The translations under genes were made by a program, and so were the position numbers. This document shows positions 30,013-61,535 of a stretch of DNA of 64,000 nt, in pieces. The notes beneath the pieces were generated by a model. It did no database searches. It was not told the origin of the DNA and saw only the letters and a list, made by a program, of their open reading frames with translations. The stretch spans positions 28,600-92,599 of the forward strand of contig MFVE01000002.1 of assembly GCA_001785985.1 (NCBI GenBank), written 5' to 3'. The stretch is from Candidatus Nomurabacteria bacterium RIFCSPLOWO2_01_FULL_42_17. Lineage in GTDB: Bacteria > Patescibacteriota > Minisyncoccia > Phycocordibacterales > UBA9973. Position 1 is the first letter of the stretch, and every line of letters begins with the position of its first letter.

Positions 30013-30050
30013 AAGTAGTTGAAGGTTATAAAGTTCATAAAGTTATAAAG
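30013..30050 (+). repeat. Dispersed AAGTT-ATAAAGTT tandem motif, copy a, directly upstream of the MFS start
   Basis: The sequence is aagtagttgaaggttataaagttcataaagttataaag. Confidence 0.7.
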
Positions 30051-30058
30051 AAAATACT

Positions 30059-31210
30059 TTGAATAAAAAAAGAAAAATAATATATTTAGTAGGTTTCATT
30101 TTTTCCCTATCGATCGCGCTGATGGCCTACATAAACTCGAGCTTCATCGCTTCTTTTATCGATGAAAAATCGGTGGGAACAGTCTACACTCTCGGATCCG
30201 TCGTTTCAATATTTGCGCTTCTCGTAGTCCCAAAGATTTTTAGGAAAGTGGGCGGGTATAAGTTTCTACTCTGGGCGATCGCCACAAATGCCCTCGCCAC
30301 AGCGCTTTTTGCCTTTGCCCAAAATGCTTGGAGCGCAATTGTGCTATTTACTATCATCTTCACTCTCAACATCCTGATATTTTTCGCCCTGGATGAACTT
30401 TTAAAAATAATTTCAAAAGATTCTTCAACTGGCAAAACCAGAGGAAGCTATCTGGCCCTCGCTAGCCTGGCTTGGATCATTGCCCAATTACTCCTCGGTA
30501 CAATTCTGGGCGAATCTTCCTTTCAAATGATCTATCTGACCAGTTTTGTGGTAATGCTATTATTTTTTAAAATTGTGCATGCATACCTCCGAGATATACC
30601 AGACCCGGAATATGACAAAACAAATACAAAAAAGTATCTCGGAGAATTTCTAAAAAACAAAAATCTATTTCGCGCGTATGTCTTGGCTCTCTTGCTACAA
30701 TTTTTCTACTGCTGGATGGTGATCTATACGCCGATATACCTTTCTTCCTACTTGGGCTTTTCTTGGAGCCAGATCGGTATAATTTTCGCCATCATGCTCT
30801 TGCCTTTTTCCATCATCCCCTTCCACTTGGGCAGATATTCGGATAAAATCGGCGAAAGAAAAATATTAATGTTCGGATTCGCCGTCGCCTCTGTTGCCAC
30901 TCTATCCCTCTTTTTTATAGGACAGCCGGAGGTATGGATATGGGCAGGACTGTTATTTCTCACCCGAATCGGGGCCGCCAGCATCGAAGTAGTGGGCGAT
31001 GCCTATTTTTTCAAACATATCAGGCCGGAAAATGAAGAATTTGTGGGAGTCTATCGTAGCGCCACTCCAGTCGCTTATATCTTCGGGCCGCTCTTTGCTT
31101 TTCTAGTTTTCATTTTCGTTCCGTCTTTTAATTTTCTCTACCTCGTACTCGGCGCTTTTCTGCTATACGGAATTTATCTCTCCTCCACTATTGCTAAAAG
31201 CGATATTTAA
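30059..31210 (+). CDS. MFS transporter
   Basis: A 383-aa protein with 12 predicted TM helices and a TTG start. Confidence 0.7.
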   Translation: MNKKRKIIYLVGFIFSLSIALMAYINSSFIASFIDEKSVGTVYTLGSVVSIFALLVVPKIFRKVGGYKFLLWAIATNALATALFAFAQNAWSAIVLFTIIFTLNILIFFALDELLKIISKDSSTGKTRGSYLALASLAWIIAQLLLGTILGESSFQMIYLTSFVVMLLFFKIVHAYLRDIPDPEYDKTNTKKYLGEFLKNKNLFRAYVLALLLQFFYCWMVIYTPIYLSSYLGFSWSQIGIIFAIMLLPFSIIPFHLGRYSDKIGERKILMFGFAVASVATLSLFFIGQPEVWIWAGLLFLTRIGAASIEVVGDAYFFKHIRPENEEFVGVYRSATPVAYIFGPLFAFLVFIFVPSFNFLYLVLGAFLLYGIYLSSTIAKSDI

Positions 31211-31225
31211 TTCTTTGAAATTTTT

Positions 31226-31254
31226 TGACATAAGACCCTAGATATGCTATAATA
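31226..31254 (+). promoter_or_regulatory. Canonical sigma-70-type promoter (TTGACA-17 bp-TATAAT) upstream of the Nudix gene
   Basis: The sequence is ttgaca taagaccctagatatgc tataat. A perfect AAGGAGG Shine-Dalgarno sequence lies 8 nt before the ATG at 31347. Confidence 0.6.
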
Positions 31255-31346
31255 AGCAAGTAGGGACTTTGTATTTTTGAAAACAAAAAATGTCGTTGAA
31301 GCAATCGACATACAAAAAACAGCTTCAAAAATGAAAGGAGGCCAAA

Positions 31347-31889
31347 ATGGCCAACAAGAAAAGATCTGTCGGGGTGATACTCGTCAGCTGGACAGAAATC
31401 GGTTTTGTCGCGGTACTTCAGGTACGAGCCAAATGGAATGAGGAGAAGAATGCTCCAGAATCCTGGCCCGGCGCATGCCAGGTCACCGTCCATGGAAAGC
31501 TCGAGGGAGAGGAAGGTTTCCTTGAAGCTCTCATACGAGAAATCAAGGAAGAGTTAGGAAGTGCATCGACCTCGGTGATCAACGCGTTAGTCAATAACGG
31601 GAGATTGACCAGGTTGGTTAACGATGAGACCGAAGATAAACAAAGCCTGACTTACGGGGGTGTGGTCAAAGAGCAGGTAGTCGGAGCGCTCTTGGCAATA
31701 GCAAAAACCCCCACTTGCGGCGGATTCCAGATTATCCGCAGTAAAGATGTAGACAATATTGTCGACATACATACATTCGACAAAGCAAGTGGCGTAATGG
31801 ACGAAAATGTCATCGCAATGTTTCCCGACGAGAAGGAAGCCGTCAGGCTCGCCTTCGAGAAACTCGGCTGTGAAAAGAAGCCAGCGTAA
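31347..31889 (+). CDS. NUDIX hydrolase
   Basis: The Nudix box GKLEGEEGFLEALIREIKEELG is present. The gene is more GC-rich than its flanks. Confidence 0.7.
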   Translation: MANKKRSVGVILVSWTEIGFVAVLQVRAKWNEEKNAPESWPGACQVTVHGKLEGEEGFLEALIREIKEELGSASTSVINALVNNGRLTRLVNDETEDKQSLTYGGVVKEQVVGALLAIAKTPTCGGFQIIRSKDVDNIVDIHTFDKASGVMDENVIAMFPDEKEAVRLAFEKLGCEKKPA

Positions 31890-31961
31890 AATTTTCCCCA
31901 AGTCGCTAGGGTGTAGCGACAAAAACCAAACAACCGCGCTAGTATCACTGCGCGGTTTGTT

Positions 31962-32393
31962 TTATTTTTGGGCGCGGATTAGGTGATTTTTGTATAATTT
32001 TTCCTTATAAGGCTTCAAGCGCGCCAGCTTTATTTCTATGCCCCTGCTTTTCAAATCCTTTTTCAGATTTTTAACATACGCCTTCTGATCATACCCCAGA
32101 GCAATAATATCCGGACTTTCTTTGATGATATGCGGAAGATGATCGCGGGCCCCCGACAAAACCACTTTGTCAACTAGAGGACAATTTCTGACTAGAGCCA
32201 TCCTTTTTTTCTCATTCAAGAATGGCCGCTTCCCTTTTATCTGTTTTACATTTTTATCTCTCGCCACAGAAACAATCAAAAATGGTTTCAAAGGTCTCTT
32301 GACCAATTTTTGCGCCTGCTTGAAAAAATTAAGATGCCCTTGGTGTAATCCATCAAAAGTGCCGAAGACCATTATTTTCTTACTGACTCTCAT
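31962..32393 (-). CDS. Cytidylyltransferase-like nucleotidyltransferase (FAD synthase RibL-like / adenylyltransferase)
   Basis: It has a GTFDGLHQGH (HxGH) motif and is 143 aa. Confidence 0.55.
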   Translation of the reverse strand: MRVSKKIMVFGTFDGLHQGHLNFFKQAQKLVKRPLKPFLIVSVARDKNVKQIKGKRPFLNEKKRMALVRNCPLVDKVVLSGARDHLPHIIKESPDIIALGYDQKAYVKNLKKDLKSRGIEIKLARLKPYKEKLYKNHLIRAQK

Positions 32394-33064
32394 TGAAAAG
32401 AAATACTTTTTATGACCACTGCGGTGATTGGCCGATCAGCTTCTCCGGTCGGCGTATTTACAATTTTTGTTACAACATCCATTCCAGATGTCACCTTCCC
32501 AAAAACGACATGCTTGGTATCTAGAAAATTATTTGCCGCCACGTTGATGAAAAACTGGCTGCCATTTGTATTTGGACCCGAGTTCGCCATCGATATCGTG
32601 CCAACATCATTCCTATTTTGAGTGTTTGTAGAGCCTAATTCATCAGCAAAAGAGTAGCCCGGTCCACCCGTGCCCCAGAGAGCCATCTTAGAGTCGTCTT
32701 TGGTAAGAGGGTCCCCTCCCTGAATCATAAAACCTTTGATCACTCGATGAAACTTGGTCCCATTATAAAACCCCTCCTTGGCCAGCTTGATGAAATTCGC
32801 CGACGTCTTTGGAGTTTGCGATTCAAAAAATTCTATTACGATGTCTCCCATGCTTGTACGTAGTGTAGCGGTTGTCATTTTTTTTGTATCTTCCATGTTA
32901 TTTGTATTTTCTAAATTATCCCCAGTTTTTATTTCAGAAGTGATGCTTAAATTGTTTCCCGCCGTTGTAAATTCATTGTTCAAAGATTCTTTATTCTGCG
33001 TTAAAAAACTAATAAATAAAATACTTGAAACAAGAACAACGCCAATAATTATATATTTTTTCAT
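32390..33064 (-). CDS. Secreted cyclophilin-type peptidyl-prolyl cis-trans isomerase
   Basis: It has a signal peptide, and FHRVIKGFMIQGGDP and WGTGGPGY motifs. Confidence 0.85.
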   Translation of the reverse strand: MKKYIIIGVVLVSSILFISFLTQNKESLNNEFTTAGNNLSITSEIKTGDNLENTNNMEDTKKMTTATLRTSMGDIVIEFFESQTPKTSANFIKLAKEGFYNGTKFHRVIKGFMIQGGDPLTKDDSKMALWGTGGPGYSFADELGSTNTQNRNDVGTISMANSGPNTNGSQFFINVAANNFLDTKHVVFGKVTSGMDVVTKIVNTPTGEADRPITAVVIKSISFQ

Positions 33065-33089
33065 GGCTCTATATTACACAATCAATCAA

Positions 33090-33866
33090 TTAGTCGCAAA
33101 CCACCACCGTCATGTTATAACTTGCTGTTGTATCATGCATTGAAAATGCAGTACTACTTGTCTCTGTTCCAGATCTATCATCAGTTACCCAAGTACCGTC
33201 TCTATTGCCGAAGACAGTGCTTGCTGTGCCCTCACCTTGTGTGCCTACGTATTCGTTATTACCGGCCCAAATTGATGACCATGTACTGTTAGCAAGTTGT
33301 TTATAAAATGAAGGTTCAAAATTTCTTAGTGTGCCAGCGGTGGCGATAGTAGTACCCCATATCGTGCACCCATCATCATCCGCACAAATATTTTGTCCAT
33401 TGACTAACATAGTAACCGCAACATATGAAGGATTACCACTAGTGCTCAGAGGAGCTGTACAAATACGTTCTGCTGTCGTCGCCCCCGTCGCCCATGAGGC
33501 ATTTCCTGATGCATCAGATGTGAGCACTTTATTAGCACCCGCGCCTGTCGTCATCTGGAAAGTAGAAGTCTTTGTCTGTCCAGATACATCGAGCTTGGCC
33601 GCAGGGGCAATAACTCCGATCCCCACATTGCCATTTTCTACGATTAATCCATTCGCCAAAGTTTGACCCGCATCGTTTAATCCCTTCAACCAGAGACTGG
33701 CCTGTTTGGTTTGTCCGATTCCGCCGACGTTGAGAGGAGCAGGTGTGTTTTCATTTGGCGGAGAAGAAGGCGGATTGGTCCAATCTGCCATCACTGAAAT
33801 AGCCGAGGCTCCGATGATCAGACCGAGAGTCAAAGTTCCTAAAGCTGTTAATAAATGTTTTTTCAT
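33090..33866 (-). CDS. Secreted Gly/Thr-rich protein with a tail-fibre-like motif
   Basis: It has a signal peptide. The segment NGNVGIGVIAPAAKLDVSG resembles the repeat found in phage tail-fibre proteins. Confidence 0.35.
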   Translation of the reverse strand: MKKHLLTALGTLTLGLIIGASAISVMADWTNPPSSPPNENTPAPLNVGGIGQTKQASLWLKGLNDAGQTLANGLIVENGNVGIGVIAPAAKLDVSGQTKTSTFQMTTGAGANKVLTSDASGNASWATGATTAERICTAPLSTSGNPSYVAVTMLVNGQNICADDDGCTIWGTTIATAGTLRNFEPSFYKQLANSTWSSIWAGNNEYVGTQGEGTASTVFGNRDGTWVTDDRSGTETSSTAFSMHDTTASYNMTVVVCD

Positions 33867-33910
33867 ATTTTTTTATTTGCTATAGATTAATTTATTTATA
33901 ATGGGAATAC

Positions 33911-34123
33911 TTATGATGTCTTGTTGATAAGCTTCATTCGTTCTTCGTCGGTCATTTTTGGATTGGCTGGAGGAATGTTTGATGTTTTGTTGATGATTTC
34001 AAATCGCTCTTCGTCAGTCAAAGTAGGTGGCGGGGATTTGGAACGAGGAGAATAGAAAAAAAGAAATACGCAGAGGAAAACTACAATTAAAATAAGCAGT
34101 AAAATTTTCGCATTTCTAGTCAT
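33911..34123 (-). CDS. Small membrane-anchored protein with an internal duplicated 17-aa motif
   Basis: The pairs TDEERFEIINKTS and TDEERMKLINKTS form the duplication. Confidence 0.3.
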   Translation of the reverse strand: MTRNAKILLLILIVVFLCVFLFFYSPRSKSPPPTLTDEERFEIINKTSNIPPANPKMTDEERMKLINKTS

Positions 34124-34182
34124 ACCTAGATAAAGTATATAACAAAAGGGAGAGGGTGAAAAATATGGGTGTGGATAACCCG

Positions 34183-34719
34183 TTATGGCATGATTATTCC
34201 TTCGGGGCCCTTGCCTCTGTTGCGTAAAATAAACTCTAGTATTTTTGCTTCATCATAACTGTCCAACTTCTCTAGCCTAGTCCAAGATGCTAGTACAATC
34301 TTTGAATCATTGGCGTCTCTAGGTGACAAGATAATATTGCCACCATTTGCTTTGGTAATTTTTTCTAAATTTTCCTTTGTATCTGAATCAATATCTTTAT
34401 AAGTGATCCATATACCGCCATGTTCTAGATTGTGTATTGCTTGTTCGTCCGCGAGAGGTCTACCATACACTCCCCAATTCGCTGGCAGTACATAATGCCA
34501 GCCCGAAGTCGGAGGATTGGAATTATATGAGGGATGCGATTCGCCATTTTTTATGTGCACTTGCCCTTGGTTTTCAAATTCTTGTCCGATAGATTCTAGG
34601 TTTTGAACATTTTTGCCGACTCTGTAATTGACATATTTAGCATCCTGAATGCTTGTAAGCCAGATAATTAGACCGATCGATACAAACGCGATTATCAAAA
34701 TAATGATAAATTTTTTCAT
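34183..34719 (-). CDS. Secreted DUF3105-like protein
   Basis: It has a signal anchor and a PTSGWHY...HNLEHGGIWITY pattern. Confidence 0.4.
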   Translation of the reverse strand: MKKFIIILIIAFVSIGLIIWLTSIQDAKYVNYRVGKNVQNLESIGQEFENQGQVHIKNGESHPSYNSNPPTSGWHYVLPANWGVYGRPLADEQAIHNLEHGGIWITYKDIDSDTKENLEKITKANGGNIILSPRDANDSKIVLASWTRLEKLDSYDEAKILEFILRNRGKGPEGIIMP

Positions 34720-34736
34720 GTCAAAAATATATCATA

Positions 34737-35126
34737 TTAAAAAAGCTTAGGCAAGAAAATAATCAGTCCGATAATGACAGCCGTAAATACAGAAAGCAAA
34801 ACGGCCGCTGCGGCCACGTCTTTGGTATCCCTGGCGTAAGGGTGATATTCGGGCGAAGTCAAATCTATATCTATTTCGACTGCTGTATTCAGCGCTTCGG
34901 TCACAAAGACAAAGCCAATTGCAAAGATGAGCGCTAGCCATTCATAGAGAGAAACCTTAAAATAGAACCCAAAAACTACCACGAGCAAAGCTGCTATTAT
35001 ATGTATAAACAAATGCCTGGTAGTTTTAGACAAAACGTACAGACCTCGAAAAGCGTTAGCGAATTTTTCGCTGTATCTCACCTCTCGCCAAGCCTTTTTT
35101 TCTTTCTGTGTTTCTTTGGAATTCAT
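34737..35126 (-). CDS. dgkA: Diacylglycerol kinase / undecaprenol kinase (DgkA family)
   Basis: Three TM helices and ANAFRGL....LNTAVE...AKDVAAAAVLLSV motifs are present. Confidence 0.75.
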   Translation of the reverse strand: MNSKETQKEKKAWREVRYSEKFANAFRGLYVLSKTTRHLFIHIIAALLVVVFGFYFKVSLYEWLALIFAIGFVFVTEALNTAVEIDIDLTSPEYHPYARDTKDVAAAAVLLSVFTAVIIGLIIFLPKLF

Positions 35127-35128
35127 TA

Positions 35129-35165
35129 TTTACTTTATAACTTTATGAACTTACGAACTTTCTAC
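35129..35165 (-). repeat. Dispersed AAGTT-ATAAAGTT motif, copy b, between the cupredoxin stop and the dgkA start
   Basis: The reverse complement is gtagaaagttcgtaagttcataaagttataaagtaaa. Confidence 0.7.
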
Positions 35166-35599
35166 TCGACTCGGAGAGTCCCTTTCATGCCGGCCGCTCG
35201 GTGACTGCCAACAGAGCAATAATATTCAAAACTTCCAATCTTATCCGCCGTAAATTCTAAAACTCCGGTATTCGGTGACTGCGCTTGTTGTGTGGCAATC
35301 CCGAATTCATCTATCTTAAAATCATGAAATCCATTTTCATTTTTGAAAATTATTTTTACCCTATCTCCTTTTTGCACTGTCAAAAGAGACGGAGTGAAAG
35401 AAAAATTCTGGCCAACGACGGTAAACTCTCTGACTGCTGGGGTAATTACAGATGCAGTTATAGTCGGAGTGAGAGTTGTATTTATTTGATTGTTCTCCAC
35501 TCCGGCAGGCGCTTCAGCTCTCTTGCCTTTTCCCAAAAAAAACACTGCCCCGGCTACTAAAATGATCAAAATAATTATGATTATGTAATTCTTTTTCAT
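35162..35599 (-). CDS. Secreted cupredoxin (type 1 blue-copper, plastocyanin/azurin-like)
   Basis: A signal peptide is present. The C-terminal YYCSVGSHRAAGM segment supplies the Cys, His and Met copper ligands. Confidence 0.7.
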   Translation of the reverse strand: MKKNYIIIIILIILVAGAVFFLGKGKRAEAPAGVENNQINTTLTPTITASVITPAVREFTVVGQNFSFTPSLLTVQKGDRVKIIFKNENGFHDFKIDEFGIATQQAQSPNTGVLEFTADKIGSFEYYCSVGSHRAAGMKGTLRVE

Positions 35600-35662
35600 G
35601 GTTCTATATTATCACCATGACCCTGAGTTTGTCGAATGGGTCATGGAATTATTGTAGCATAA

Positions 35663-36859: not shown

Positions 36860-36947
36860 CTGGATTCACAATTTGATTAAAGAGCTTCTTTGTACTATTG
36901 TACTTATATTGCCGGATCATCTAAAAAATTAGTTGCTGTGCAAAGCT

Positions 36948-37018
36948 GGGAGATCGTCTAACGGTAGGACACGTCCCTCTGGAGGACGTTATCTTGGTTC
37001 GAATCCAAGTCTCCCAGC
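36948..37018 (+). tRNA. tRNA-Gln (anticodon CTG) nested inside a 16-bp extended flanking stem
   Basis: Manual fold: acceptor tgggaga/tctccca, anticodon loop cuCUGga, and a GGTTCGAATCC T arm. The flanks agttgctgtgcaaagc and gctttgcacagcaac pair with each other. Confidence 0.75.
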
Positions 37019-37078
37019 TTTGCACAGCAACAATACTTGAGATAGCAAAACACTCGACTTGTATGCTATACTAACAAC

Positions 37079-41416: not shown

Positions 41417-43072
41417 TTATTTCTTTGCGTTTAAGGTACAAGCTTTGATGAAAGCAGTGAAAAGCGGATGCGGGCGGAGTGGATGGGCAAGAAATTCCGG
41501 ATGAAACTGGGTACCGAGGAAAAAAGGATGCTTATCTTTTGGAAGCTCTGCAATTTCCATCAGTCTTCTGTCTGGCGAGACGCCAGAAAAAACGAGACCG
41601 CCTTCGGTAAACTTTATATGGTATTGCGGATTCACTTCATAACGGTGCCTGTGACGCTCGATGACCTCCTGCACGCCATAAGCCTCTTGTGCGATAGAAC
41701 CTTTCCTTAAATGCGCTGGGTATACGCCGAGACGCATCGTCGCGCCGTAATTTTTGTTGGCAATCTTTTCTTTTTGTTCAGGCATGATGTCGATCACCAG
41801 ATTCTTGGCATTCGGATTGACTTCCGAAGTATTCGCATCTTTCATGCCTAAAACATTGCGCGCATATTCTATGACCATCATTTGCATACCGTAACAAAGC
41901 CCGAAATAAGGGATTTTATTCTCGCGCGCAAATCTAATGACTTTTAGATTGCCTTCCAGGCCGCGAGAACCGAAACCGCCCGGCACCACGATGCCATCAT
42001 ATTTTTTAAGTTCTTTTAGTTTGGCCCCTCCATTTTCATAGTCCACAGAATTCAACCACGAAATAATCGGCTTTTTATTTTGAGCATAACTCGAATATTT
42101 GATCGCCTCAATCACCGAGAGATAAGAATCAGACAACATGAAATCCCCTGTCTCAAAATACTTGCCAACCACGGCGATCTTGATCGTATCTTTGTTATTG
42201 TGAGCTTGTTTGGCAAAATTTTTCCATTTATTCCAAGACGCAGCATCTGGTTTTTTACAAACCATTCCCATAATCTCGCAAAGTTTGTCGGAAAGTTTTT
42301 CTGCTTCAAAATTCAGCGGTATATCATATATGCTATCCACATCCGGCGCGGAAATGATCCGGTCATGAAACATATTGCACAAAACAGAAAGCTTTTCTTT
42401 TCTTTTTTCATCCATTTTCGTCTCACCCCTCGCGAGAAGTATGTCCGGCTGGATACCCGAAGCATTCAGGGTGCGGATAGCATGCTGGGTCGGCTTGGTT
42501 TTCATCTCGCCCAGCTTGCCCGGCGTCGGCAGATAAGAAACCATCACAAAACTCACGTCTTTGGGAGCTTCGAGTTTCATCATTCTGGCCGCTTCGAGGA
42601 ATAAAATATTTTCATATTCCCCGACCGTGCCGCCGATTTCAATGATCACCACATCTGCTTTCGCGATGACTCCCGCTTTTTTAATTCTGCCTATGACCTC
42701 GAGCGGAATATCCGGCACGACTTGCACATTTTTGCCCTTGTATTCTAGATTGCGTTCTTTAGCGATGACAGTCTGATATACTCGCCCAGTCGTCATATAA
42801 TTTGCCCTGGTTAAATTTAAACCCATGAATCTCTCGTAATTTCCCATGTCTTGATCCGTCTCGTCTCCGTCAGAAAGCACAAAAACCTCTCCATGCTCCG
42901 TCGGATTCATCGTGCCAGCATCGATATTTATATAAGCGTCGATTTTTACCGCAGTCACATTCAGCCCGCGATTTTTTAGAATAAATCCAATCGAAGATGT
43001 AGTAATACCCTTCCCCACTCCGGAAATAACTCCCCCCACTACAAAAATATATTTTGTTTGTTTTTTCTCCAT
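41417..43072 (-). CDS. pyrG: CTP synthase
   Basis: It has a synthetase domain plus a GATase domain (GLCYGMQ) and is 551 aa. Confidence 0.95.
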   Translation of the reverse strand: MEKKQTKYIFVVGGVISGVGKGITTSSIGFILKNRGLNVTAVKIDAYINIDAGTMNPTEHGEVFVLSDGDETDQDMGNYERFMGLNLTRANYMTTGRVYQTVIAKERNLEYKGKNVQVVPDIPLEVIGRIKKAGVIAKADVVIIEIGGTVGEYENILFLEAARMMKLEAPKDVSFVMVSYLPTPGKLGEMKTKPTQHAIRTLNASGIQPDILLARGETKMDEKRKEKLSVLCNMFHDRIISAPDVDSIYDIPLNFEAEKLSDKLCEIMGMVCKKPDAASWNKWKNFAKQAHNNKDTIKIAVVGKYFETGDFMLSDSYLSVIEAIKYSSYAQNKKPIISWLNSVDYENGGAKLKELKKYDGIVVPGGFGSRGLEGNLKVIRFARENKIPYFGLCYGMQMMVIEYARNVLGMKDANTSEVNPNAKNLVIDIMPEQKEKIANKNYGATMRLGVYPAHLRKGSIAQEAYGVQEVIERHRHRYEVNPQYHIKFTEGGLVFSGVSPDRRLMEIAELPKDKHPFFLGTQFHPEFLAHPLRPHPLFTAFIKACTLNAKK

Positions 43073-43110
43073 ACTTTATGACTTTATGAACTTTCCACTT
43101 TATAACTACT
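43073..43110 (-). repeat. Dispersed AAGTT-ATAAAGTT motif, copy c, between the ftsX stop and the pyrG start
   Basis: The reverse complement is aagtagttataaagtggaaagttcataaagtcataaagt. It ends 1-2 nt before the pyrG ATG. Confidence 0.7.
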
Positions 43111-44023
43111 TATTTAAATATCTCCTCACCGCCAAGAAACTGGAAATCACCCCAAAGAGTATACCTGATAATAAAATTATTGCAAAAATTTGGAAGAAAT
43201 TTGAAAGATAATAATTGTACAAATTGAGACCCAGGAAAGCGGTCATATTACGCCCCAGCCAAGCCGTAACCGGCAGAAATAGCGCCAAGGTTACAAAGGT
43301 AGCGACAATACCATAAAGCGCGCCCTCGATCATAAAGGGCCCTCGCACATGCATTTTAGAAGCGCCTACCAGACGCATCACCCCGATCTCTTCCCTAGAG
43401 ATATAGATCGTCAGTCGAATAGTATTGAAGGTGATAATAATAGAAGAAATTATCAAATAGAGCGTCAGCAGAAATCCAAGTTTTTGCGCGCCAGATATTA
43501 TTGTTTTCAATCTTTCAATCACTAATTTATTGTCGTGATAATTTGAATGATTTATGATATCCGATGAACCCAAGACGAGCGCATTATCGGACTTTAAAAA
43601 ATTCGCAATGTTTTCATATTGAGAAATTTCTTTGGTTTTGATGTTCAAAGTGGCGCCGAGCGGATTTTCTCCTATTTCATCCAAGGCGGCAATCGTCGAA
43701 TAATCGCTCGCATGGCGTTCTCGGAAAAGTCTGATCGCTTCGTCCGCGCTAGTATAAGAAATATTCTCTACTTCTGGCAATTTCAAGAGGGATTCTTTTA
43801 AAGACAGGATCTGAACTTCAGGCGCACCGACATTAAAATAAATTGTAACATCCACCTTGTCTTTTATGACGCTGAGCGCAGAATAGAGCACTGCCTGCAA
43901 AAGAATGATGGTGACGATCACAGCTAGAGTATTCAAAACTTGCAAGACAGCCGCGAAAGAAACCAAACCGCCCCGTCTGAAGTTTATAAAACCTGCTTTG
44001 ATAATTCTTTTTAATTCAGTCAT
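43106..44023 (-). CDS. ftsX: Cell-division ABC transporter permease FtsX
   Basis: It has four TM helices with a large periplasmic loop and is adjacent to ftsE. Confidence 0.8.
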   Translation of the reverse strand: MTELKRIIKAGFINFRRGGLVSFAAVLQVLNTLAVIVTIILLQAVLYSALSVIKDKVDVTIYFNVGAPEVQILSLKESLLKLPEVENISYTSADEAIRLFRERHASDYSTIAALDEIGENPLGATLNIKTKEISQYENIANFLKSDNALVLGSSDIINHSNYHDNKLVIERLKTIISGAQKLGFLLTLYLIISSIIITFNTIRLTIYISREEIGVMRLVGASKMHVRGPFMIEGALYGIVATFVTLALFLPVTAWLGRNMTAFLGLNLYNYYLSNFFQIFAIILLSGILFGVISSFLAVRRYLNK

Positions 44024-44028
44024 GGCTA

Positions 44029-44066
44029 TAAGTTTATAAAGTTATAAAGTTGAAAGTTATAAAGTC
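44029..44066 (+). repeat. Dispersed AAGTT-ATAAAGTT motif, copy d
   Basis: The sequence is agtttataaagttataaagttgaaagttataaagtcaa. Confidence 0.7.
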
Positions 44067-44113
44067 AAATTATAATTCATTTGCTCCAGTAATTATAGCA
44101 TATAGTCACGCAT

Positions 44114-44152
44114 TTTACTTTACGAACTTTATGAACTTGATAACTTTCCACT
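44114..44152 (-). repeat. Dispersed AAGTT-ATAAAGTT motif, copy e, forming an inverted pair with copy d
   Basis: The reverse complement is gtggaaagttatcaagttcataaagttcgtaaagtaaaa. Confidence 0.7.
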
Positions 44153-44819
44153 ATTTATGGTGCTTTGTGTCCCTGATAACTTTTCCATTTTCCATTGTAA
44201 TAACTCTTTTGCCGATCGCATCAATGATGCCCCTGTTATGCGTAGCCAGAATCACGGTAGTTCCGAGGTCATTTATTTTTTTCAGGATTTGCACTATCTC
44301 GTGGGTATTTATGCTATCTAGATTGCCAGTCGGCTCGTCGGCAATGATGAGTTCGGGCTGATTGATGATAGCTCGCGCGATCGCCAGCCTTTGTTGTTCG
44401 CCGCCAGAGAGCTGGCTCGGAAAATGGTGCGAACGGTGGCTCAAATCCACCAGCTCCAGCACATGTGGAACATCTGAAGCTATCTCTAGATCCGTCTTGC
44501 CCAGCGCTTCCATCGCAAAAGATATATTTTCATAAGCAGTTTTATTTGAAAGCAATTTAAAGTCTTGGAAGACTACTCCGATGCGCCTGCGCAACTTGGT
44601 CAGATCTTTATTTTTAAGCGTATGCACATTGATAGATTCAAAAAAGACGGTGCCGTCGGAGGGATTTTCATCTGCCACGATCATTTTGGTCAAAGTCGTC
44701 TTGCCCGCGCCGGAATGCCCGACAATCGAGACAAATTCTCCCGCTGTGATAGTGACGCTGACGTTATCTAACGCCACCGCATCCTTATAAATTTTAGAAA
44801 CATTGTTGAAGTAGATCAC
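44151..44819 (-). CDS. ftsE: Cell-division ATP-binding protein FtsE
   Basis: Walker A (GHSGAGKTT), the ABC signature LSGGEQQR and Walker B are all present. Confidence 0.9.
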   Translation of the reverse strand: MIYFNNVSKIYKDAVALDNVSVTITAGEFVSIVGHSGAGKTTLTKMIVADENPSDGTVFFESINVHTLKNKDLTKLRRRIGVVFQDFKLLSNKTAYENISFAMEALGKTDLEIASDVPHVLELVDLSHRSHHFPSQLSGGEQQRLAIARAIINQPELIIADEPTGNLDSINTHEIVQILKKINDLGTTVILATHNRGIIDAIGKRVITMENGKVIRDTKHHK

Positions 44820-44846: not shown

Positions 44847-45185
44847 TTATCGAAACAAAGTGGAAATTTTAGCCAAAATCTCTTGCACTTCTAATTCACT
44901 AACTTTACCTGCTAACCTTTTCACTCTTTCTATAGTATCAAAGGATCGCACATGGTCACATAAAACAAAAGACTTTCCATCCGGTCCGTCTACAGGAACT
45001 TCAAATGGATGGTTTTTAGACTTAGTTGTCATAGGACAAACAAGAACTATATTAGAGAAAGAATTATACTGGAGTGGAGAAATTATAACAGCTGGGCGTA
45101 AACCTGACTGTTCATGTCCTTTTGTAGGGCTGAAGTCAATCCATGCTATATCGCCCCTCTCTAAAATCATGCGGCTTTTTACCAT
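44847..45185 (-). CDS. mazF: MazF/PemK-family endoribonuclease toxin
   Basis: The RGDIAWIDFSPTKGHEQSGLRPAVIIS pattern is present. Confidence 0.8.
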   Translation of the reverse strand: MVKSRMILERGDIAWIDFSPTKGHEQSGLRPAVIISPLQYNSFSNIVLVCPMTTKSKNHPFEVPVDGPDGKSFVLCDHVRSFDTIERVKRLAGKVSELEVQEILAKISTLFR

Positions 45186-45433
45186 ACTTCTTTTCCTCTC
45201 GGTTCATCATCTGGCCATATAAGTTTATGACGATTTTTAGGAGTAATGCCAGCAACAAGCTCCTCCAATGTATACTTTGGAACTTTTACTTTAATCTTAG
45301 GTCGAACTATAAAACCATCATTGCTCGTAGTAAAAGAAATTTGTGAACCCGCTTTCAAGTTGAAGCTGTCCGCTAATTCCTTAGGCAATCGCATTGCCAA
45401 ACTATTTCCCCACTTTTGTATTTTAGTTGTCAT
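45179..45433 (-). CDS. mazE: MazE / AbrB-type antitoxin
   Basis: IQKWGNSLAMRLPKEL matches a SpoVT/AbrB swapped-hairpin. It overlaps mazF by 7 nt. Confidence 0.75.
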   Translation of the reverse strand: MTTKIQKWGNSLAMRLPKELADSFNLKAGSQISFTTSNDGFIVRPKIKVKVPKYTLEELVAGITPKNRHKLIWPDDEPRGKEVW

Positions 45434-54755: not shown

Positions 54756-55394
54756 TTAAATAAATCCGTACTCCCGAAAAATCTGCTCATACAAAGCGAT
54801 CACTCTTTTGGCTTCGTGCTGTGAAAGCTGAAAAGAGGCACCTTCGTGAGCTATCCTATTTCGAATGGTATGCACTTCCCACGCAGACGTAAGGCTGTGA
54901 AATTTTTCAGTAGTAGCGGCAGATTTCAGTTTATCGCCCAAAGTTTCGCCCGCAAATCCTAATTGGCTCATCAAATCGTCGAGCATCGAATCAGCTTCAA
55001 TGATCGCGAGCTTCCAATCGCTGATGTGTTGCGAAAAAATATAACCGAGAGTCTTTACCCATCTTTCATTTTTAGACACTCCCTCCCCTTCTTGGAGTTT
55101 TTTCTCTCGCTCGGCCTGATGATGCGCATATTCAGCGATCTCGTGCTCTAGATGTTTTTTCTCCTTACTTCTAATCTCAAACATTCGAACCGCGCAATAA
55201 GAAATCAACGTCAGAAAAAATAATGCAAGAAAGAAAAGAACAGTATGGAAAAGAGATAATATTTGCGGCCAATTAGAAATATTAAAATTGGAAAGACTCT
55301 GAAAAAAAGAGACGCCTTGATTGAATAAATAGTCCGGATTAAACCATTTGGAACCCAAAAATGAATCTCCGAAAATATTACTTGATGAATCCAT
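54756..55394 (-). CDS. Membrane protein, hypothetical
   Basis: A 212-aa protein with one or two TM helices near the N-terminus. Confidence 0.35.
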   Translation of the reverse strand: MDSSSNIFGDSFLGSKWFNPDYLFNQGVSFFQSLSNFNISNWPQILSLFHTVLFFLALFFLTLISYCAVRMFEIRSKEKKHLEHEIAEYAHHQAEREKKLQEGEGVSKNERWVKTLGYIFSQHISDWKLAIIEADSMLDDLMSQLGFAGETLGDKLKSAATTEKFHSLTSAWEVHTIRNRIAHEGASFQLSQHEAKRVIALYEQIFREYGFI

Positions 55395-55419
55395 ATAAAA
55401 ATTATACCACGATTTTCAT

Positions 55420-56832
55420 TTATTTTATCGCCTCAAAACGCTTCCCGATTTCAAAAAGAGAACTCTCGCAAAAATAAGGCGCCATAAACTGAATAGAAAA
55501 TGGCAAACCGTCTTTTGATGTCCCCGATGGTAAAGCAATAGAAGGAACGCCAGTTAAATTTGCTGGCGCAGAAAAGATATCACACAAATACATCGCCACT
55601 GGATCATCTAATTTTTCTCCTAACTTAAAAGGAAGCACTGGTACAGTTGGAGTAAGAATATAATCAACCTTTTTAAAAGCATTAAAAATTTCTTCTCTTA
55701 TTTTTTCTCGCACGTTCAAAGCTTTATTATAATAAGCGTCGTAGTATCCATGAGATAGAACATAAGTACCAAGCAAAATTCTGCGACGAGCCTCTTTACC
55801 AAAACCACCTCCTCTGCTTTTCTTATACACATCCATCAAACTCTCTCCTTTCACACTATAGCCATAACGTATTCCATCAAAACGTGCCAAATTCGTAGAA
55901 ACTTCGGCAGGCATAATAATATAATAAACAGCTAAAGAATATTTACAATATGGAAGTTCTATATCTACAATTTCATATCCGGCTTTTTTAAATTTTCCTA
56001 AAGATTGCTTAAAATTTTCTTGAACTTCACTATCTACACCTTCTTTAAATAAATGCCAAGGAACACCAATCTTTTTACCACCTAAAACATGATTCCTTAA
56101 ATTATCTGGCACAGAAGTGCTATCTTCTTTATCATATCTAGATAAGAAATTAAATATTATCTCTGCATCTCTTACATTTTTACCAAAAGGTCCCACTTGA
56201 TCAAGTGAATTACCCATAGGAATAACTCCTTGTCTAGAGATTGCGCCATAAGTAGACCTCAACCCAACTAATCCACAAAATGCTGATGGCTCTCGTACAG
56301 AACCACAGGTTTCAGTGCCCAAAGCAGCCAAGGCCATACCTCCAGCGAGAGCTGCTGCCGAACCGCCAGAAGAACCTCCAGGCACTCTAGATAAATCAAT
56401 AGGATTACGTGTAACACCATAGGCTGATGTCTGTGTAGAAGAACCCATTGCAAATTCATCCATATTGGTCCTACCTAAAAAAACAGCTCCAACTTTTTTT
56501 AGATCTTTTATCACTGTAGCGTCATAGGAGGCCTTATAATTTTCCAAAATTTTTGAGCCTGCAGAAGATATTTTACCTTTAATTAAGATAATATCTTTTA
56601 TGGCAAATGGAATACCAGTCAACTCTGATGCTACCCCATTTTTAAACATTTCTTGAGCAATATCGGCTTGTTTTAATACATCATCATAAATTTCCAAATA
56701 TGCATTTATTTCAGGATTTTTTTCTTTAATAACTTTCAAATATTCCCCTGCTAATTCACGACAAGAGTATTTACCACTTTTAAAATCTTGATGCGCTTTT
56801 TCTATTGTTAAATTTTTTAAATCTATCTTCAT
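55420..56832 (-). CDS. gatA: Glutamyl/aspartyl-tRNA amidotransferase subunit A
   Basis: The amidase signature GGSSGGSAAALA is present, and gatC lies upstream. Confidence 0.9.
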   Translation of the reverse strand: MKIDLKNLTIEKAHQDFKSGKYSCRELAGEYLKVIKEKNPEINAYLEIYDDVLKQADIAQEMFKNGVASELTGIPFAIKDIILIKGKISSAGSKILENYKASYDATVIKDLKKVGAVFLGRTNMDEFAMGSSTQTSAYGVTRNPIDLSRVPGGSSGGSAAALAGGMALAALGTETCGSVREPSAFCGLVGLRSTYGAISRQGVIPMGNSLDQVGPFGKNVRDAEIIFNFLSRYDKEDSTSVPDNLRNHVLGGKKIGVPWHLFKEGVDSEVQENFKQSLGKFKKAGYEIVDIELPYCKYSLAVYYIIMPAEVSTNLARFDGIRYGYSVKGESLMDVYKKSRGGGFGKEARRRILLGTYVLSHGYYDAYYNKALNVREKIREEIFNAFKKVDYILTPTVPVLPFKLGEKLDDPVAMYLCDIFSAPANLTGVPSIALPSGTSKDGLPFSIQFMAPYFCESSLFEIGKRFEAIK

Positions 56833-57134
56833 AATATTTTTTTCACTTTCACAAAGCCATCCTGAGCGTCCGGAAACTGCCCGATAATCAGCTCCTTGGA
56901 AAATTCTCTAGGCTCCAACACATCCTCCCGCCAAATATTTGTGAGGCTATATTCCGCCTTTACATCATCTACTTTTACTCCCTCGATCTGCTTGACGTAC
57001 TCCAAAATACCCTCCATATCCTTCAACATGGCCTTCTTTTCATCTTCTCCCAGCTCGATTCTGGCTAGATTGGCTAAATTCTCGACGTCCTTGATATCCA
57101 TATGATAACAGTATACATCAACACTTCTATCCAA
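56829..57134 (-). CDS. gatC: Glutamyl/aspartyl-tRNA amidotransferase subunit C
   Basis: A 101-aa protein that overlaps the gatA start by 4 nt. Confidence 0.75.
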   Translation of the reverse strand: MDRSVDVYCYHMDIKDVENLANLARIELGEDEKKAMLKDMEGILEYVKQIEGVKVDDVKAEYSLTNIWREDVLEPREFSKELIIGQFPDAQDGFVKVKKIL

Positions 57135-58017
57135 TCAAAGCTTTGACTCGCTCTTCTACCGGCGGATGCGTAGCAAAAAGGCCCAAAAAGACTTTGGTTT
57201 TTCTGCCGAAACCCACCCCTTTTGGATCAGCGATGTAGAGATGCGCGATGGCATTCGATTGGCGCGCCATGGGTTTGCTATATTGAGAGATTTTACGCAG
57301 AGCATTTGCCAAACCTTCCGGATAGCGAGTGAGCAGAGCCCCAGAAGCATCTGCTAAAAATTCACGCTTTCTAGAGATAGCCAGTTGAATAAGTATTGCA
57401 AAAATCGGCGCTAAGATTGAAAGAATAATCCCCACAAGCATGAGTACCCCCGCGGCCTTATTATCGCTGTCTCTCCTGCCGAAAAATAAATGTCTGGTAA
57501 AAATGTCTGCGACGATAGTGACAAAGCCCACCAGCACGACAACTACGGTCGAGAGCAGCATGTCGCGATTGCCAATATGCGATAGCTCGTGCGCGATGAC
57601 GCCCTCTAATTCATTTTTATTCAAAATCGCCAAAAGCCCCGTAGTTGCGCAGACCACCGCGTGATTTTTATCTCGGCCAGTAGCAAAAGCGTTCGGCGCT
57701 TGATCTAACACGACGTATATTTTCGGCATTGGCAATCCCGCAGTGATAGAAAGATTTTCCACACTGGTATACAAGTCAAAATATTCTTCTCTCTTTGCTT
57801 CTTTTGCCCCAGAGAGCTTCAAGACGATCTTGTCCGAATACCAATAGGAAAAAAAATTCATCAAAACGCTAAAAATCACAAAGAAATACAATATATTCGG
57901 ATTGTTGTAATAAAAACTAAAAAACCAGCCGAAAAGAATTACCACCACAAAAAACACCGTCATGAGCATCCATGTTTTTGTGACATTTTTAGATTGATGC
58001 GTATAAAGCGTCGCCAT
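57127..58017 (-). CDS. htpX: Zinc metalloprotease HtpX (M48)
   Basis: It has four TM helices and an HELSHIGNRD (HExxH) motif. Confidence 0.85.
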   Translation of the reverse strand: MATLYTHQSKNVTKTWMLMTVFFVVVILFGWFFSFYYNNPNILYFFVIFSVLMNFFSYWYSDKIVLKLSGAKEAKREEYFDLYTSVENLSITAGLPMPKIYVVLDQAPNAFATGRDKNHAVVCATTGLLAILNKNELEGVIAHELSHIGNRDMLLSTVVVVLVGFVTIVADIFTRHLFFGRRDSDNKAAGVLMLVGIILSILAPIFAILIQLAISRKREFLADASGALLTRYPEGLANALRKISQYSKPMARQSNAIAHLYIADPKGVGFGRKTKVFLGLFATHPPVEERVKALIG

Positions 58018-58023
58018 GAATAC

Positions 58024-58950
58024 TTATTGAGACTGCATTCTATTATAACTCGTGATGACAGAGTCAATATAGGATCCGCTGCAGCCGAGATTTTGAATTT
58101 TATTTTTCTCCAAATTATTTTCTACAAAAACTCCGAGACTGCCGTAAAAGTGTATCTGGCTCGCGTATTTAACCGGATTGTCTTTGCTCGGGGCAGTAAA
58201 CGTTGGAGGGTTTTTACTTTCATCTATCGCCTTGACGATATTCACAGGACAAGAAATAGACTGGCCGGCCAATTTCTTGCCTGCTCTATCAAATAGAGTG
58301 CTGTCCAATCCATACGACAATTTAAAATTGCAAGTCTCCCCGGTTTTAATAATTTGGAAGACATCTGGAAATAGATCACTTTTCAAAACAGCTTTAGCAT
58401 TTTCGCAAGATAAAGCGCTAGTGCCTAGACAATTTAACACAGAAATATGACTTATTGTAGTTGTGGCATTTTTTAGGTCCGGCGCCGTGCTAGTCCCGCA
58501 ATCCTTTGCGCTAGTTGCATCTGACGCGACTCCATTATTGCTATCTCCCGCGGTAGACGTATCTGCGGTCTCAGGTGTTTTTGGACTAAAATAAGAAGAA
58601 AACAAGCCCTTTATATTATCTACTCCACTATTCCAGAAACCGATGATCTGCGGTTGATAGAAATACCAAACGACTAAACAAATCAAAGCTACGATAATAA
58701 AAATTAAATTTTCAGAAGTTTTTCTGGATAATTTTTTCTCACTTTTTACCTCTGGATTAATAGTGTATTGATTAGTCGCGCTTGGAGCGACAAAATTCTG
58801 CATTGGAATTGCCATTCTGAATCCTTCATTCAAGTCCACTTCGCTCCACCCCCCGTTTCTGACTAATTCGGCGCGAATATCCTCGCGCGTGCGACCTTTC
58901 GCAAACTCCCCTTTTATATATCCTATAAGTTCTGGTGTGATCATAAACAA
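58024..58950 (-). CDS. Membrane-anchored hypothetical protein
   Basis: A 308-aa protein with one TM helix and a Ser/Thr/Ala-rich linker. Confidence 0.35.
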   Translation of the reverse strand: MFMITPELIGYIKGEFAKGRTREDIRAELVRNGGWSEVDLNEGFRMAIPMQNFVAPSATNQYTINPEVKSEKKLSRKTSENLIFIIVALICLVVWYFYQPQIIGFWNSGVDNIKGLFSSYFSPKTPETADTSTAGDSNNGVASDATSAKDCGTSTAPDLKNATTTISHISVLNCLGTSALSCENAKAVLKSDLFPDVFQIIKTGETCNFKLSYGLDSTLFDRAGKKLAGQSISCPVNIVKAIDESKNPPTFTAPSKDNPVKYASQIHFYGSLGVFVENNLEKNKIQNLGCSGSYIDSVITSYNRMQSQ

Positions 58951-58975
58951 AAAAAATTTCTATTAATAAATTCGA

Positions 58976-59527
58976 CTAAAACTTTACTTCCACTGGATTT
59001 TGAGCGACATCATTGTCCGCCAAATCAAAAAATTCTTTTTTGGTAAATCCAAAAATCCCAGCTAAAATATTCGAGGGAAAAGACTCAATCTTAATATTCA
59101 AGTCGCGCACATTGCTGTTGTAAAATCTGCGCGCAGCCTGGATTTTATTTTCTGTATCAGAAAGCTCATTTTGCAGAGCCAAGAAATTTTGATTAGCTTT
59201 AAGATCTGGATAAGCTTCGGCAATAGCAAAAATAGATTTTAATGCGCCAGTGAGCATATTTTCGGCTTCGGCATGTTCCTTTGTAGGGCCTTGCGCGCCC
59301 ATCGCCATGCTCCTGGCCTTGGTCACATTTTCAAAAGCGGAAGACTCGTGCTTGGCATATCCCTTGACTGAATTTACTAAATTTGGAATCAGATCGTATC
59401 GGCGTTTTAATTGCACTTCAATATCCGCCCAAGCCTCCCCCGCGCGAGTGCGCAAAGTAATAAAGCCATTATAGATAATAATCGCCCACAGAATGAGAAC
59501 CCCTAAGACTATCAAAATGTATATCAT
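58976..59527 (-). CDS. lemA: LemA-family protein
   Basis: It has an N-terminal TM helix and a NGFITLRTRAGEAWADIEVQLKRRYDLIPNLV segment. Confidence 0.8.
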   Translation of the reverse strand: MIYILIVLGVLILWAIIIYNGFITLRTRAGEAWADIEVQLKRRYDLIPNLVNSVKGYAKHESSAFENVTKARSMAMGAQGPTKEHAEAENMLTGALKSIFAIAEAYPDLKANQNFLALQNELSDTENKIQAARRFYNSNVRDLNIKIESFPSNILAGIFGFTKKEFFDLADNDVAQNPVEVKF

Positions 59528-59547
59528 GAGTATATTGTACTACAAAT

Positions 59548-60570
59548 TTATTTAATTTCCATACCAGTCATTAAATTGCTAAAAAGGTACATAAAGTCAG
59601 TAGAATTCGCCGGAGCTTTTATTTCCACTGGGCTAGCACCGTCAATGATCACAGATAGATCCATAGTCCCAGTATTTTTCCCCGTCTCATCAGATATTTC
59701 TATAGAAGACTTCACTTGAATTGGAAGATAATTCTCCTTATGAACAAGCAATTCAATATTATGAATATCGATCATTTGGAGAGCATCTTCGATTCCGGCT
59801 GCGATCTCTAAAGCATCAACTTTCTGACCCTCTCCAGCATTTTTGACTATAACGCCCAAAAGCTCTGTCAGCATATTTTTCAATTCTGTTTTTTCTAAAG
59901 TTATACTGAAACGATAGGACGGAGATCCTTCTATTTGTCCATCCCCAAGTTTTTTAATGCGTGCTGCATTTTCATATTTTTCTACAATAGCCAGCTGCTC
60001 TTGCCTCTCTTCTTTGGAAACATTGGGAATTCCTCCTTGCTCTACTGCTTTTAATATGTCATCACTTTCCGTTCCACCAAGGTTCTTAACTAATGCTTTT
60101 AAATCCATTCTCCACCATTTTCCTTTTATAGAAGAAAGATCCATCGGGAACCCACTTAATTCATTGAGTTTTACATACAAAAGCATATCCTTCGGCATGC
60201 TTATTACTTCGGCTGCAAATAAGACAGGATCGTTGGCGAAATCTTCCAATAAAATTCTTATATTGGAAAGATATGGTTTCGTGCCGCCCAGCAGAATGCC
60301 TGCATCAGTAGAAACTACCTGGTCCAGAGAAAAATGTATTTTAGGATACACTCCCGCCGGCAGATTGTTTAGAGCAGAGAGCTCATCATCTTTGACCGTG
60401 AAAATACCATCTACCCTTTCTCGGATAAATTCCTTGGAAGCAAGTTCTGCTGAAACTTTAGAAAATATTTCTTTAAACGAATCTGTACTTTTATTGTAGG
60501 AAAAAATACCCCCAGCCACGATCAAAATCCCCAGAACAACTACTATTATTTGCGCTTTATTTATATTCAT
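59548..60570 (-). CDS. Membrane-anchored hypothetical protein
   Basis: A 340-aa protein with an N-terminal TM helix. Confidence 0.35.
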   Translation of the reverse strand: MNINKAQIIVVVLGILIVAGGIFSYNKSTDSFKEIFSKVSAELASKEFIRERVDGIFTVKDDELSALNNLPAGVYPKIHFSLDQVVSTDAGILLGGTKPYLSNIRILLEDFANDPVLFAAEVISMPKDMLLYVKLNELSGFPMDLSSIKGKWWRMDLKALVKNLGGTESDDILKAVEQGGIPNVSKEERQEQLAIVEKYENAARIKKLGDGQIEGSPSYRFSITLEKTELKNMLTELLGVIVKNAGEGQKVDALEIAAGIEDALQMIDIHNIELLVHKENYLPIQVKSSIEISDETGKNTGTMDLSVIIDGASPVEIKAPANSTDFMYLFSNLMTGMEIK

Positions 60571-60591
60571 AAATTTGTTAATTATATTATA

Positions 60592-61494
60592 TTATTTTCT
60601 ATCCTGCCATTCCTTGATCCAAACCAGCATCGGTGAAGCAAAGAAAAGCGATGAATAGATGCCGAAGAAAAGACCGATGGTCAGAATAAAGGCAAAATTC
60701 TTTGTCGTTTCCGGACCAAAGAAATAAAGCGGCACCAGTACGCCGATAATAGTGAGAGTAATGTTGATGGAACGGACGATGGTCTCCTTAGTGCTCTTGC
60801 CGACTGTTTCCGCAAAATCTTTTTGCTCTTCGTCTCGTAAATTTTCTCTGATCCGATCAAAAACGACGATCTTGTCATGAACAGACAAGCCTAAAATAGT
60901 CAGTAGCGCTAAAACGAAAAGCGTATCCACCTCCGCGCCCGTATAGTGAGACACCAAGGCAAAAATCCCAGTCGGAATGATGATGTCATGGAGAAGTGTG
61001 ATAATGGTGATGATTCCGTATTTCCACGATGGCACCGGTTTTGAGACTTTGCGAAAAGCGTAAGTGATAAAAAGAATAATCGCGATAATAACAAAAATCA
61101 TGGAAAGAATCGCTTTGCGCGCCAGTTCGCTCCCGACCGACGGACCGATAGAAGTATAGCTTTTCTCTGTGGCATTATATTTCCCCGCCTTTGACCAAAA
61201 TGCCAAAATCTTTTGATGTTCCTCTTCCGTTAGATCCCTAGTCTTGATGAGATATCCCAAGTAACCATCGCCTCCCGTGGGCTGAATGAGAGCCTGGTTG
61301 ATACCAAGAGAATTCAAACTATTCTGGACAGAATCGGCCTCCGGACGATCTCCTACGAAATCTAACTCTAGGAGTGCTCCCCCTTTAAAATCGATCCCGA
61401 GTTTTAAGCCGAAAGTAAAGATAAAAACGATAGAGACGATCATTAGGATGACCGAGAGGGCAAGGAATATTTTTTTGTATTTAACGATAAACAT
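60592..61494 (-). CDS. secF: Protein translocase subunit SecF
   Basis: It has six TM helices and lies downstream of secD. Confidence 0.85.
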   Translation of the reverse strand: MFIVKYKKIFLALSVILMIVSIVFIFTFGLKLGIDFKGGALLELDFVGDRPEADSVQNSLNSLGINQALIQPTGGDGYLGYLIKTRDLTEEEHQKILAFWSKAGKYNATEKSYTSIGPSVGSELARKAILSMIFVIIAIILFITYAFRKVSKPVPSWKYGIITIITLLHDIIIPTGIFALVSHYTGAEVDTLFVLALLTILGLSVHDKIVVFDRIRENLRDEEQKDFAETVGKSTKETIVRSINITLTIIGVLVPLYFFGPETTKNFAFILTIGLFFGIYSSLFFASPMLVWIKEWQDRK

Positions 61495-61500
61495 GGTTTA

Positions 61501-61535
61501 GTGGAAAGTTATAAAGTTCATAAAGTTGAAAGTCA
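61501..61535 (+). repeat. Dispersed AAGTT-ATAAAGTT motif, copy f, between the secD stop and the secF start
   Basis: The sequence is gtggaaagttataaagttcataaagttgaaagtca. Confidence 0.7.

Follow-up and report, generated by a model that had tools for sequence, protein, structure and literature searches.

Six short tandem-repeat arrays with an AAAGTT core lie at gene junctions in a 64-kb stretch of DNA (the window) from the candidate phyla radiation (CPR)/Patescibacteria metagenome-assembled genome (MAG) Candidatus Nomurabacteria bacterium RIFCSPLOWO2_01_FULL_42_17. These arrays are the repeat type that flanks one subfamily of PF05635 (23S_rRNA_IVP) genes in several phyla. They are part of a cross-phylum family tied to a PF05635 gene, which goes beyond what an earlier sequence-only reading of this DNA had seen. 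The six blocks are probably arms, left without an open reading frame (ORF), of a cassette of the type known as intervening sequences (IVSs) of rRNA. The feature as a whole is best read as IVS-type elements outside rRNA, mostly solo arms turned gene boundaries.

Arrays at gene junctions in the window

The arrays are 35–40 nt long, and each copy consists of 4–5 tandem units of 8–9 nt. The consensus is TAGTgGAAAGTT-ATAAAGTT-CATAAAGTT-ATAAAGTa, with an invariant AAAGTT core. A profile made from the six copies recovers all of them in the 64 kb (E ≤ 0.005) and nothing else above noise, the best match elsewhere in the window having E = 2.4. The 13-mer AAGTTCATAAAGT, with at most one mismatch, has 7 matches in the window where 0.14 are expected; 7 matches were reached in none of 100 shuffles, and no arrays were found in the shuffled window sequence. 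The sequence-only reading had described a strict 9-mer motif repeated two to four times per copy. Both figures need revision, as only the core is constant and the units are more numerous. Its placement of the six copies was borne out by inspection of the sequence and by the profile search, and it was right about their orientations and about the genes on either side, namely RNase J and a major facilitator superfamily (MFS) protein, cupredoxin and diacylglycerol kinase (DAGK), FtsX and PyrG (CTP synthase), FtsE and FtsX, and SecD and SecF.

All six arrays occupy tiny gaps between genes. Four (30016, 35129, 43073 and 44114) are in sense orientation to the genes and two (44029 and 61499) are antisense. 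The window thus holds four solo arrays and one inverted pair, between ftsE and ftsX, and a fifth solo array falls just outside it. The individual features are as follows.

30016-30052, plus strand: solo array, sense; fills the gap from the rnj stop (30009-30011) to the TTG start of the MFS gene (30059); unstructured as RNA
35129-35166, minus strand: solo array, sense; its 5' TAG (35162-35164) is the cupredoxin stop, and the array ends 5 nt before the DAGK ATG (35126)
43073-43108, minus strand: solo array, sense; its 5' TAG (43106-43108) is the ftsX stop, and the last unit abuts the pyrG ATG (43072)
44029-44068, plus strand: arm of the inverted pair, antisense; its 5' end and the ftsX start codon (44023) are 5 nt apart
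44069-44113, minus strand: loop of the ftsE–ftsX pair, with an extended -10-like TGCTATAAT at 44092-44100 (minus strand)
44114-44153, minus strand: arm of the inverted pair, sense; its 5' TAG (44151-44153) is the ftsE stop
61499-61535, plus strand: solo array, antisense; occupies the gap between secD and secF, extends over the TGA stop of secD (61533-61535) and lies 4 nt from the secF ATG (61494)
4570-4610 of L215, just past the right end of the window: seventh array, solo, sense; begins at the TGA stop of ftsW and ends 3 nt short of the folD ATG

Three of the four sense copies, those behind cupredoxin, ftsX and ftsE, supply with their 5' end the TAG that terminates the gene upstream. No arrays were found in ~9.6 kb to the left of the window (L217). 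Other assemblies of the locus are at least 99.86% identical, so that strain variation is uninformative here. No Rfam family matches the arrays.

As RNA, the solo copies of the window have folding energies of -1.3 to -4 kcal/mol (z approximately -0.9 to 0), no better than shuffled sequences. Folding of the ftsE–ftsX pair gives a long A/U stem (-28.6 kcal/mol, z = -3.5). This pair is the only one of the window features with the long stem of an IVS-type cassette, which the solo copies cannot form. The earlier suggestion of an RNA-processing site is therefore plausible for this inverted pair only, the solo copies being unstructured. The window contains no rRNA; all of its copies lie between protein-coding genes, and none stands in helix 25 or 45 of 23S rRNA.

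PF05635 genes between array arms

The distribution of the arrays was surveyed by scanning one genome per species with the pattern AAGTTCATAAAGTN{2,4}AAAG, which returned at least 120 loci. Among the 120 loci listed, which do not include the window's own genome, 108 carry true arrays. They hold 168 arrays, most commonly of four units, and in nearly all matches the scan pattern is embedded in further YRTAAAGTT units. Counted by record title, ~56 of the listed loci are from Bacteroidota and ~36 from Patescibacteria. The others come from Ignavibacteria, Chloroflexota, some gammaproteobacterial MAGs, a cyanobacterium (Microcoleus, L098, where the match has an AAAGTT array) and further groups, and cultured isolates are among the carriers. 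In viral contigs the same pattern gave real arrays at 9 of 53 loci, none with a PF05635 (IVP) gene, so that most viral matches appear to be due to chance. Phages were rejected as vectors of the arrays, since the viral matches are mostly isolated chance matches.

The ORFs found between the arms belong to PF05635 (also S23p, a four-helix bundle), with E-values of 1e-15 to 1e-37. The gene sits exactly between an AAAGTT and an AACTTT array in Flexilinea (L117), in a member of the Bacteroidales (L122) and in a member of the Patescibacteria (L032). All three arm-to-arm intervals of 240–370 nt contain such a gene, truncated in the L032 copy, and none of the shorter loops does. More than 4,000 homologs were recovered when the L117 protein was used as query, and many lie on very short contigs. 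Four IVP proteins were picked on protein similarity only (P0013 from Segatella, P0053 from Vicingaceae, P0057 from Saprospirales, and P0009), and all four of their genes have AAAGT-type arrays on both sides. These genes are wedged into operons, in the orders sufS–IVP–sufE, pta–IVP–ackA and avd–IVP–reverse transcriptase. At the L206 locus the ATG of sufE belongs to the terminal AACTTTATG unit. The number of units varies between strains, as seen between L206 and L207 and among L212–L214.

The kind of repeat follows the kind of protein. All nine distinct copies of IVP genes whose products share 57% identity or more with the L117 protein, a subfamily of ~114 aa, have AAAGT-type arms. Those at or below 42% identity (n=9) mostly have other units, such as TAGGTTC, ATTGGTT, GCGAA.., AATAACC and AAATCTA. 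Repeat unit and subfamily of the enclosed PF05635 protein therefore vary together, and the window copies match the profile of the arrays that flank the ~114-aa subfamily. There is no PF05635 ORF in the window, and for this reason its copies are filed as ORF-less derivatives and not as complete elements.

In Segatella hominis and its relatives (L203–L205) the AAAGTT-flanked IVP cassette lies inside a diversity-generating retroelement, between the bAvd gene and the reverse transcriptase. The bAvd protein is a PF05635 relative as well. Butyricimonas muris and Flavobacterium sp. Root186 are, like S. hominis, cultured carriers.

At the listed loci most arrays are intergenic and lie right next to a gene end. 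Where the neighbouring genes are co-directional, a sense array starts at the stop codon of the first gene or within it (median 6 nt), a median of 60 nt before the next start, and antisense arrays are found near the next start (median 17 nt). Solo arrays turn their 5' (TAGTT) end towards a gene end, at a median distance of 20 nt, compared with 77.5 nt at the 3' side (51 of 78, p=0.009). Inverted pairs invariably show the order AAAGTT-array, loop of 0–200 nt, AACTTT-array (24 of 24, p=1e-7). This order puts the TAGTT ends outside and allows the arms to pair into a hairpin. The outer ends often read TTAGTT...AACTAA. Neither the loops nor the flanks of the 24 pairs are related between copies, the flanking dinucleotides are not consistently TA, and no constant target duplication is present. 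An rRNA context was also considered and rejected, as ten loci with arrays far from ORFs, when scanned, contained tRNAs only and no rRNA.

The closest known systems are the IVSs of 23S rRNA. In Coxiella, inverted repeats on either side of an S23p ORF pair into a 28-bp stem, which RNase III cuts; the 5' part of the IVS consists of tandem GACAGAT heptamers in strain-variable number (PMC4990558). IVSs with an S23p ORF from Leptospira, Coxiella and Xanthomonas (PMC4990558) share with the present elements the inverted tandem-repeat ends, the variable unit number and the PF05635 gene. ORF-less hairpin versions of these IVSs exist, their stem is an RNase III substrate, and they are regarded as selfish or neutral. 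The window copies differ in lying between protein genes of operons instead of in rRNA helices 25 or 45. Most of them are single arms with no stem, the unit is AAAGTT(N)2-3, and some supply stop codons. The PF05635-type protein was still described as functionally uncharacterised in a 2024 survey of CPR rRNA insertions (PMC11270868).

Other dispersed repeats are more distant. Miniature inverted-repeat transposable elements (MITEs) such as Correia, RUP and BOX are likewise small, non-autonomous intergenic repeats with inverted ends, and can donate signals to genes. The arrays differ from them in having no conserved interior, no consistent target duplication and no transposase, and solo arms are common. 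The short tandemly repeated repetitive (STRR) sequences of heterocystous cyanobacteria, reportedly described as heptamer arrays by Mazel and colleagues in 1990, resemble the window arrays as dispersed short tandem repeats in intergenic regions; their units and hosts differ. We know of no examination of a link between STRR sequences and IVP genes. In the full texts searched, with repeat sequences included in the search, no description was found of arrays at operon junctions or of a rule linking unit to subfamily.

The ftsE–ftsX–pyrG junctions in relatives

The gene order ftsE–ftsX–pyrG is kept in 80 metagenomic relatives (FtsX 68–84% identical). The ftsX–pyrG junction takes three forms in these: a bare gap of 0–7 nt (in many), an AAAGTT array (in eight distinct lineages), or unrelated palindromic elements of ~100 nt. 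All ftsX–pyrG array copies share a peculiar order of units, TTATAAAGT followed by [AG]GAAAGTT, and on this basis they are taken to be orthologous. The scatter of the carriers over the FtsEX tree implies an ancient array that has repeatedly been lost or exchanged. Among junction types with the array, 7 of 8 end FtsX with TAG, compared with 10 of 44 array-less types (p=0.0009); the array thus brings its own stop codon.

The pyrG genes behind ftsX in these relatives (L123–L202) fall into two types, whose products share 53–61% or 75–86% identity with the window protein. Both types occur among close relatives and are intermingled on the FtsEX tree, suggesting replacement or recombination near this junction.

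At the ftsE–ftsX junction, array-less relatives have a gap of 15–30 nt containing only a TGnTAtAAT promoter. In the window and in L157 a promoter-like box lies in the loop between the two arms, and the loop appears to hold the ancestral ftsX promoter. In L174 and L187 the same junction carries inverted arrays of another unit (TTCTAGG / CTAGAACC) around a PF05635 ORF. Arms of the TTCTAGG type also enclose a peptidase S51-like gene in L174, and L125 has an empty arm pair. Palindromic elements of ~100–135 nt, such as GAGAAAGGAAAATTTGAAAGATTTT...AAAATCTTTCAAATTTTCCTTT, are found at ftsE–ftsX and ftsX–pyrG in L136, L159, L172, L181, L138, L142, L195 and L202. The stop-to-start gaps at ftsE–ftsX and ftsX–pyrG are hotspots for several small repeat families.

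Origin and possible functions of the arrays

A complete element consists of a short-tandem-repeat array, a ~114-aa PF05635 gene and the same array inverted, and sits exactly from stop to start between two genes or inside 23S rRNA. Probably the arrays arrived or spread within such cassettes and afterwards lost the gene by internal deletion. Two observations point to this origin: the series of arm-to-arm sizes, from 370 and 341 nt through 240 nt (with a truncated gene) to shorter gene-less loops, and the excess of gene-less arrays over complete copies by ~20 to 1. The arrays would then persist because the stop-to-start gap is likely the sole tolerated site in a compact genome and because removal would need a precise deletion. 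As part of a transcript, a solo arm would be an unstructured, A/U-rich spacer that has little specific effect. The two arms at ftsE–ftsX would form a stem of ~35 bp, which RNase III could cut as it does in rRNA IVSs.

Several observations weigh against derivation of the window arrays from cassettes. Neither the window nor ~16 kb of added flanking sequence contains a PF05635 gene, and no insertion event was found that showed clean boundaries or a target duplication. The minimum-energy fold of a full cassette includes its long-range stem, but the centroid fold does not. Within the ftsE–ftsX loop, the promoter-like box fits two separate arm insertions or local growth better than a cassette that lost its gene, and suggests that the arms arrived or grew separately. 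Finally, the ftsX–pyrG array copies are 78% identical, compared with 53% at third-codon positions of ftsX (FtsX identity 71–84%). This hints at constraint or homogenisation as opposed to inert remains, although low complexity inflates such identities.

The last two points leave some room for working cis-elements, that is, RNA- or DNA-binding arrays for a trans-acting protein, such as an IVP pentamer encoded elsewhere, that would control coupling, stability or processing at operon junctions. Specific recognition would also give the co-variation of unit and IVP subfamily, and the fixed polarity of solo arms relative to gene ends and the retention of the ftsX–pyrG array across divergent lineages are in keeping with it. 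Co-inheritance of arms and gene explains the co-variation equally well, though, and the arrays are patchy at orthologous junctions, with many relatives having none. With no IVP gene near the window and the function of the protein uncharacterised, such a role is rather unlikely. Less likely again is selection of the arrays as mRNA elements for differential stability or processing of operon segments, after the manner of the repetitive extragenic palindromic (REP) sequences and bacterial interspersed mosaic elements (BIMEs) of enterobacteria. Like these, the arrays are 35–40 nt long, are found within operons in both orientations and are in some cases paired as inverted copies; the ftsE–ftsX pair folds well. 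A REP unit, in contrast, is an imperfect palindrome with a stem-loop and is tied to RAYT transposases, which are IS200/IS605-like, whereas the arrays are direct tandem repeats without self-complementarity. Single copies are neither palindromic nor structured, 5 of the 7 copies of this genome are solo, and no terminator-like site was found in the scanned region 42900-44400, which holds three copies.

The sequence-only reading had proposed, among other roles, a Shine-Dalgarno (SD)-independent translation-initiation or standby element, noting sense copies that end 1–5 nt before the start of genes lacking an SD sequence. The distances hold for DAGK (5 nt) and pyrG (0 nt); the array before the MFS gene ends ~8 nt from its start, which is a TTG. 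The SD sequence is indeed missing from these genes, but this is nothing special, since GGAG, GAGG or AGGA stands upstream of the start in only 4 of 63 window genes, under the 8.6% background. Many window genes instead have an extended -10-like TGnTAtAAT 6–8 nt upstream of the ATG, a position that suggests widespread leaderless mRNAs in this Nomurabacteria genome. Examples are the starts at 1051, 17245 (both plus strand), 5340, 9744, 13273, 15427, 35599, 54230, 55394 and 59527 (all minus strand).

In favour of an initiation element, sense copies end 0–8 nt from the following start codon, and A/U-rich, unstructured sequence of this kind is generally permissive for initiation. In this the arrays resemble A/U-rich translational enhancers (S1-binding leaders and the T7 epsilon sequence UUAACUUUA). 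Such enhancers are strand-specific and in register with the start codon, and would be kept wherever the downstream gene needs them. The arrays show none of this: solo arrays between co-directional genes are 30 sense and 21 antisense (p=0.26), two of the window copies run antisense, the anchor of sense arrays is the stop codon and not the start, and most relatives have no array at ftsX–pyrG. Array-less relatives join ftsX and pyrG with a gap of 0–7 nt, also without an SD. Solo arrays, being unstructured as RNA, are thus permissive for initiation but bear no mark of a dedicated signal; a specific initiation role is very improbable. Complementarity to 16S rRNA or likeness to T7 epsilon was rejected as well, as it is the reverse complement of the array unit that resembles epsilon, on the wrong strand for sense copies, and orientation is unbiased. 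A promoter role was likewise rejected after a two-hexamer scan found no promoter in the arrays; the TATAAA of the last unit is in leaderless-promoter register for two copies only.

The least credible origin is AT-rich low-complexity sequence produced by local replication slippage, or a transposon-derived MITE that targets TA. Slippage does occur, as unit number differs between strains, and the frequent TTAGTT...AACTAA outer ends are suggestive of a MITE. The inconsistent flanking dinucleotides and unrelated loops speak against the latter. A purely local origin is refuted by the recurrence of the same unit in the same four-unit format across phyla, and shuffling the window yields no arrays. A fit of AAAGTTCAT to the LytTR 9-mer consensus ([TA][AC][CA]GTTN[AG][TG]) was also considered. 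It was rejected because LytTR sites are 21–22 bp apart, whereas array units follow each other without a gap, and because the architecture recurs in several unit families that are unrelated to one another.

Elsewhere in the window, a group I intron match (Rfam, 76 bits) lies at 54470-54689 on the plus strand, opposite to all neighbouring genes. It adjoins a tRNA-Met (54294-54367, minus strand) and an ORF (53568-54230, minus strand) with a faint LAGLIDADG match. A MazE/PemK-type toxin-antitoxin pair (44847-45433, minus strand) is directly upstream of ftsE, and RNase P RNA is encoded at 23586-23889 (minus strand).

Derivation of the window arrays from IVS-type cassettes, our preferred reading, bears on a very large family. 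PF05635 proteins are annotated as "four helix bundle protein", and the link to repeats gives them a genomic grammar: a gene between inverted, subfamily-specific arrays, wedged from stop to start in housekeeping operons, with gene-less arrays far commoner. On a more tentative note, PF05635 genes and their subfamily-specific arms could constitute an unrecognised class of mobile cassette, in which the IVP pentamer would recognise its own unit, ORF-less arrays would be non-autonomous derivatives, and insertion would take place precisely at stop/start junctions and in rRNA helices, in many phyla and with no conventional transposase. Binding of an IVP to its own repeat (e.g. (AAAGUUCAU)4), cutting by RNase III and mobility of the cassette are all testable hypotheses. 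Since the repeat itself can supply stop and start codons, annotation at such junctions calls for caution. The link also explains a class of assembly-breaking repeats in MAGs of Patescibacteria and Bacteroidota, and it ties repeats found in protein-coding operons to the puzzle of rRNA intervening sequences, now thirty years old.

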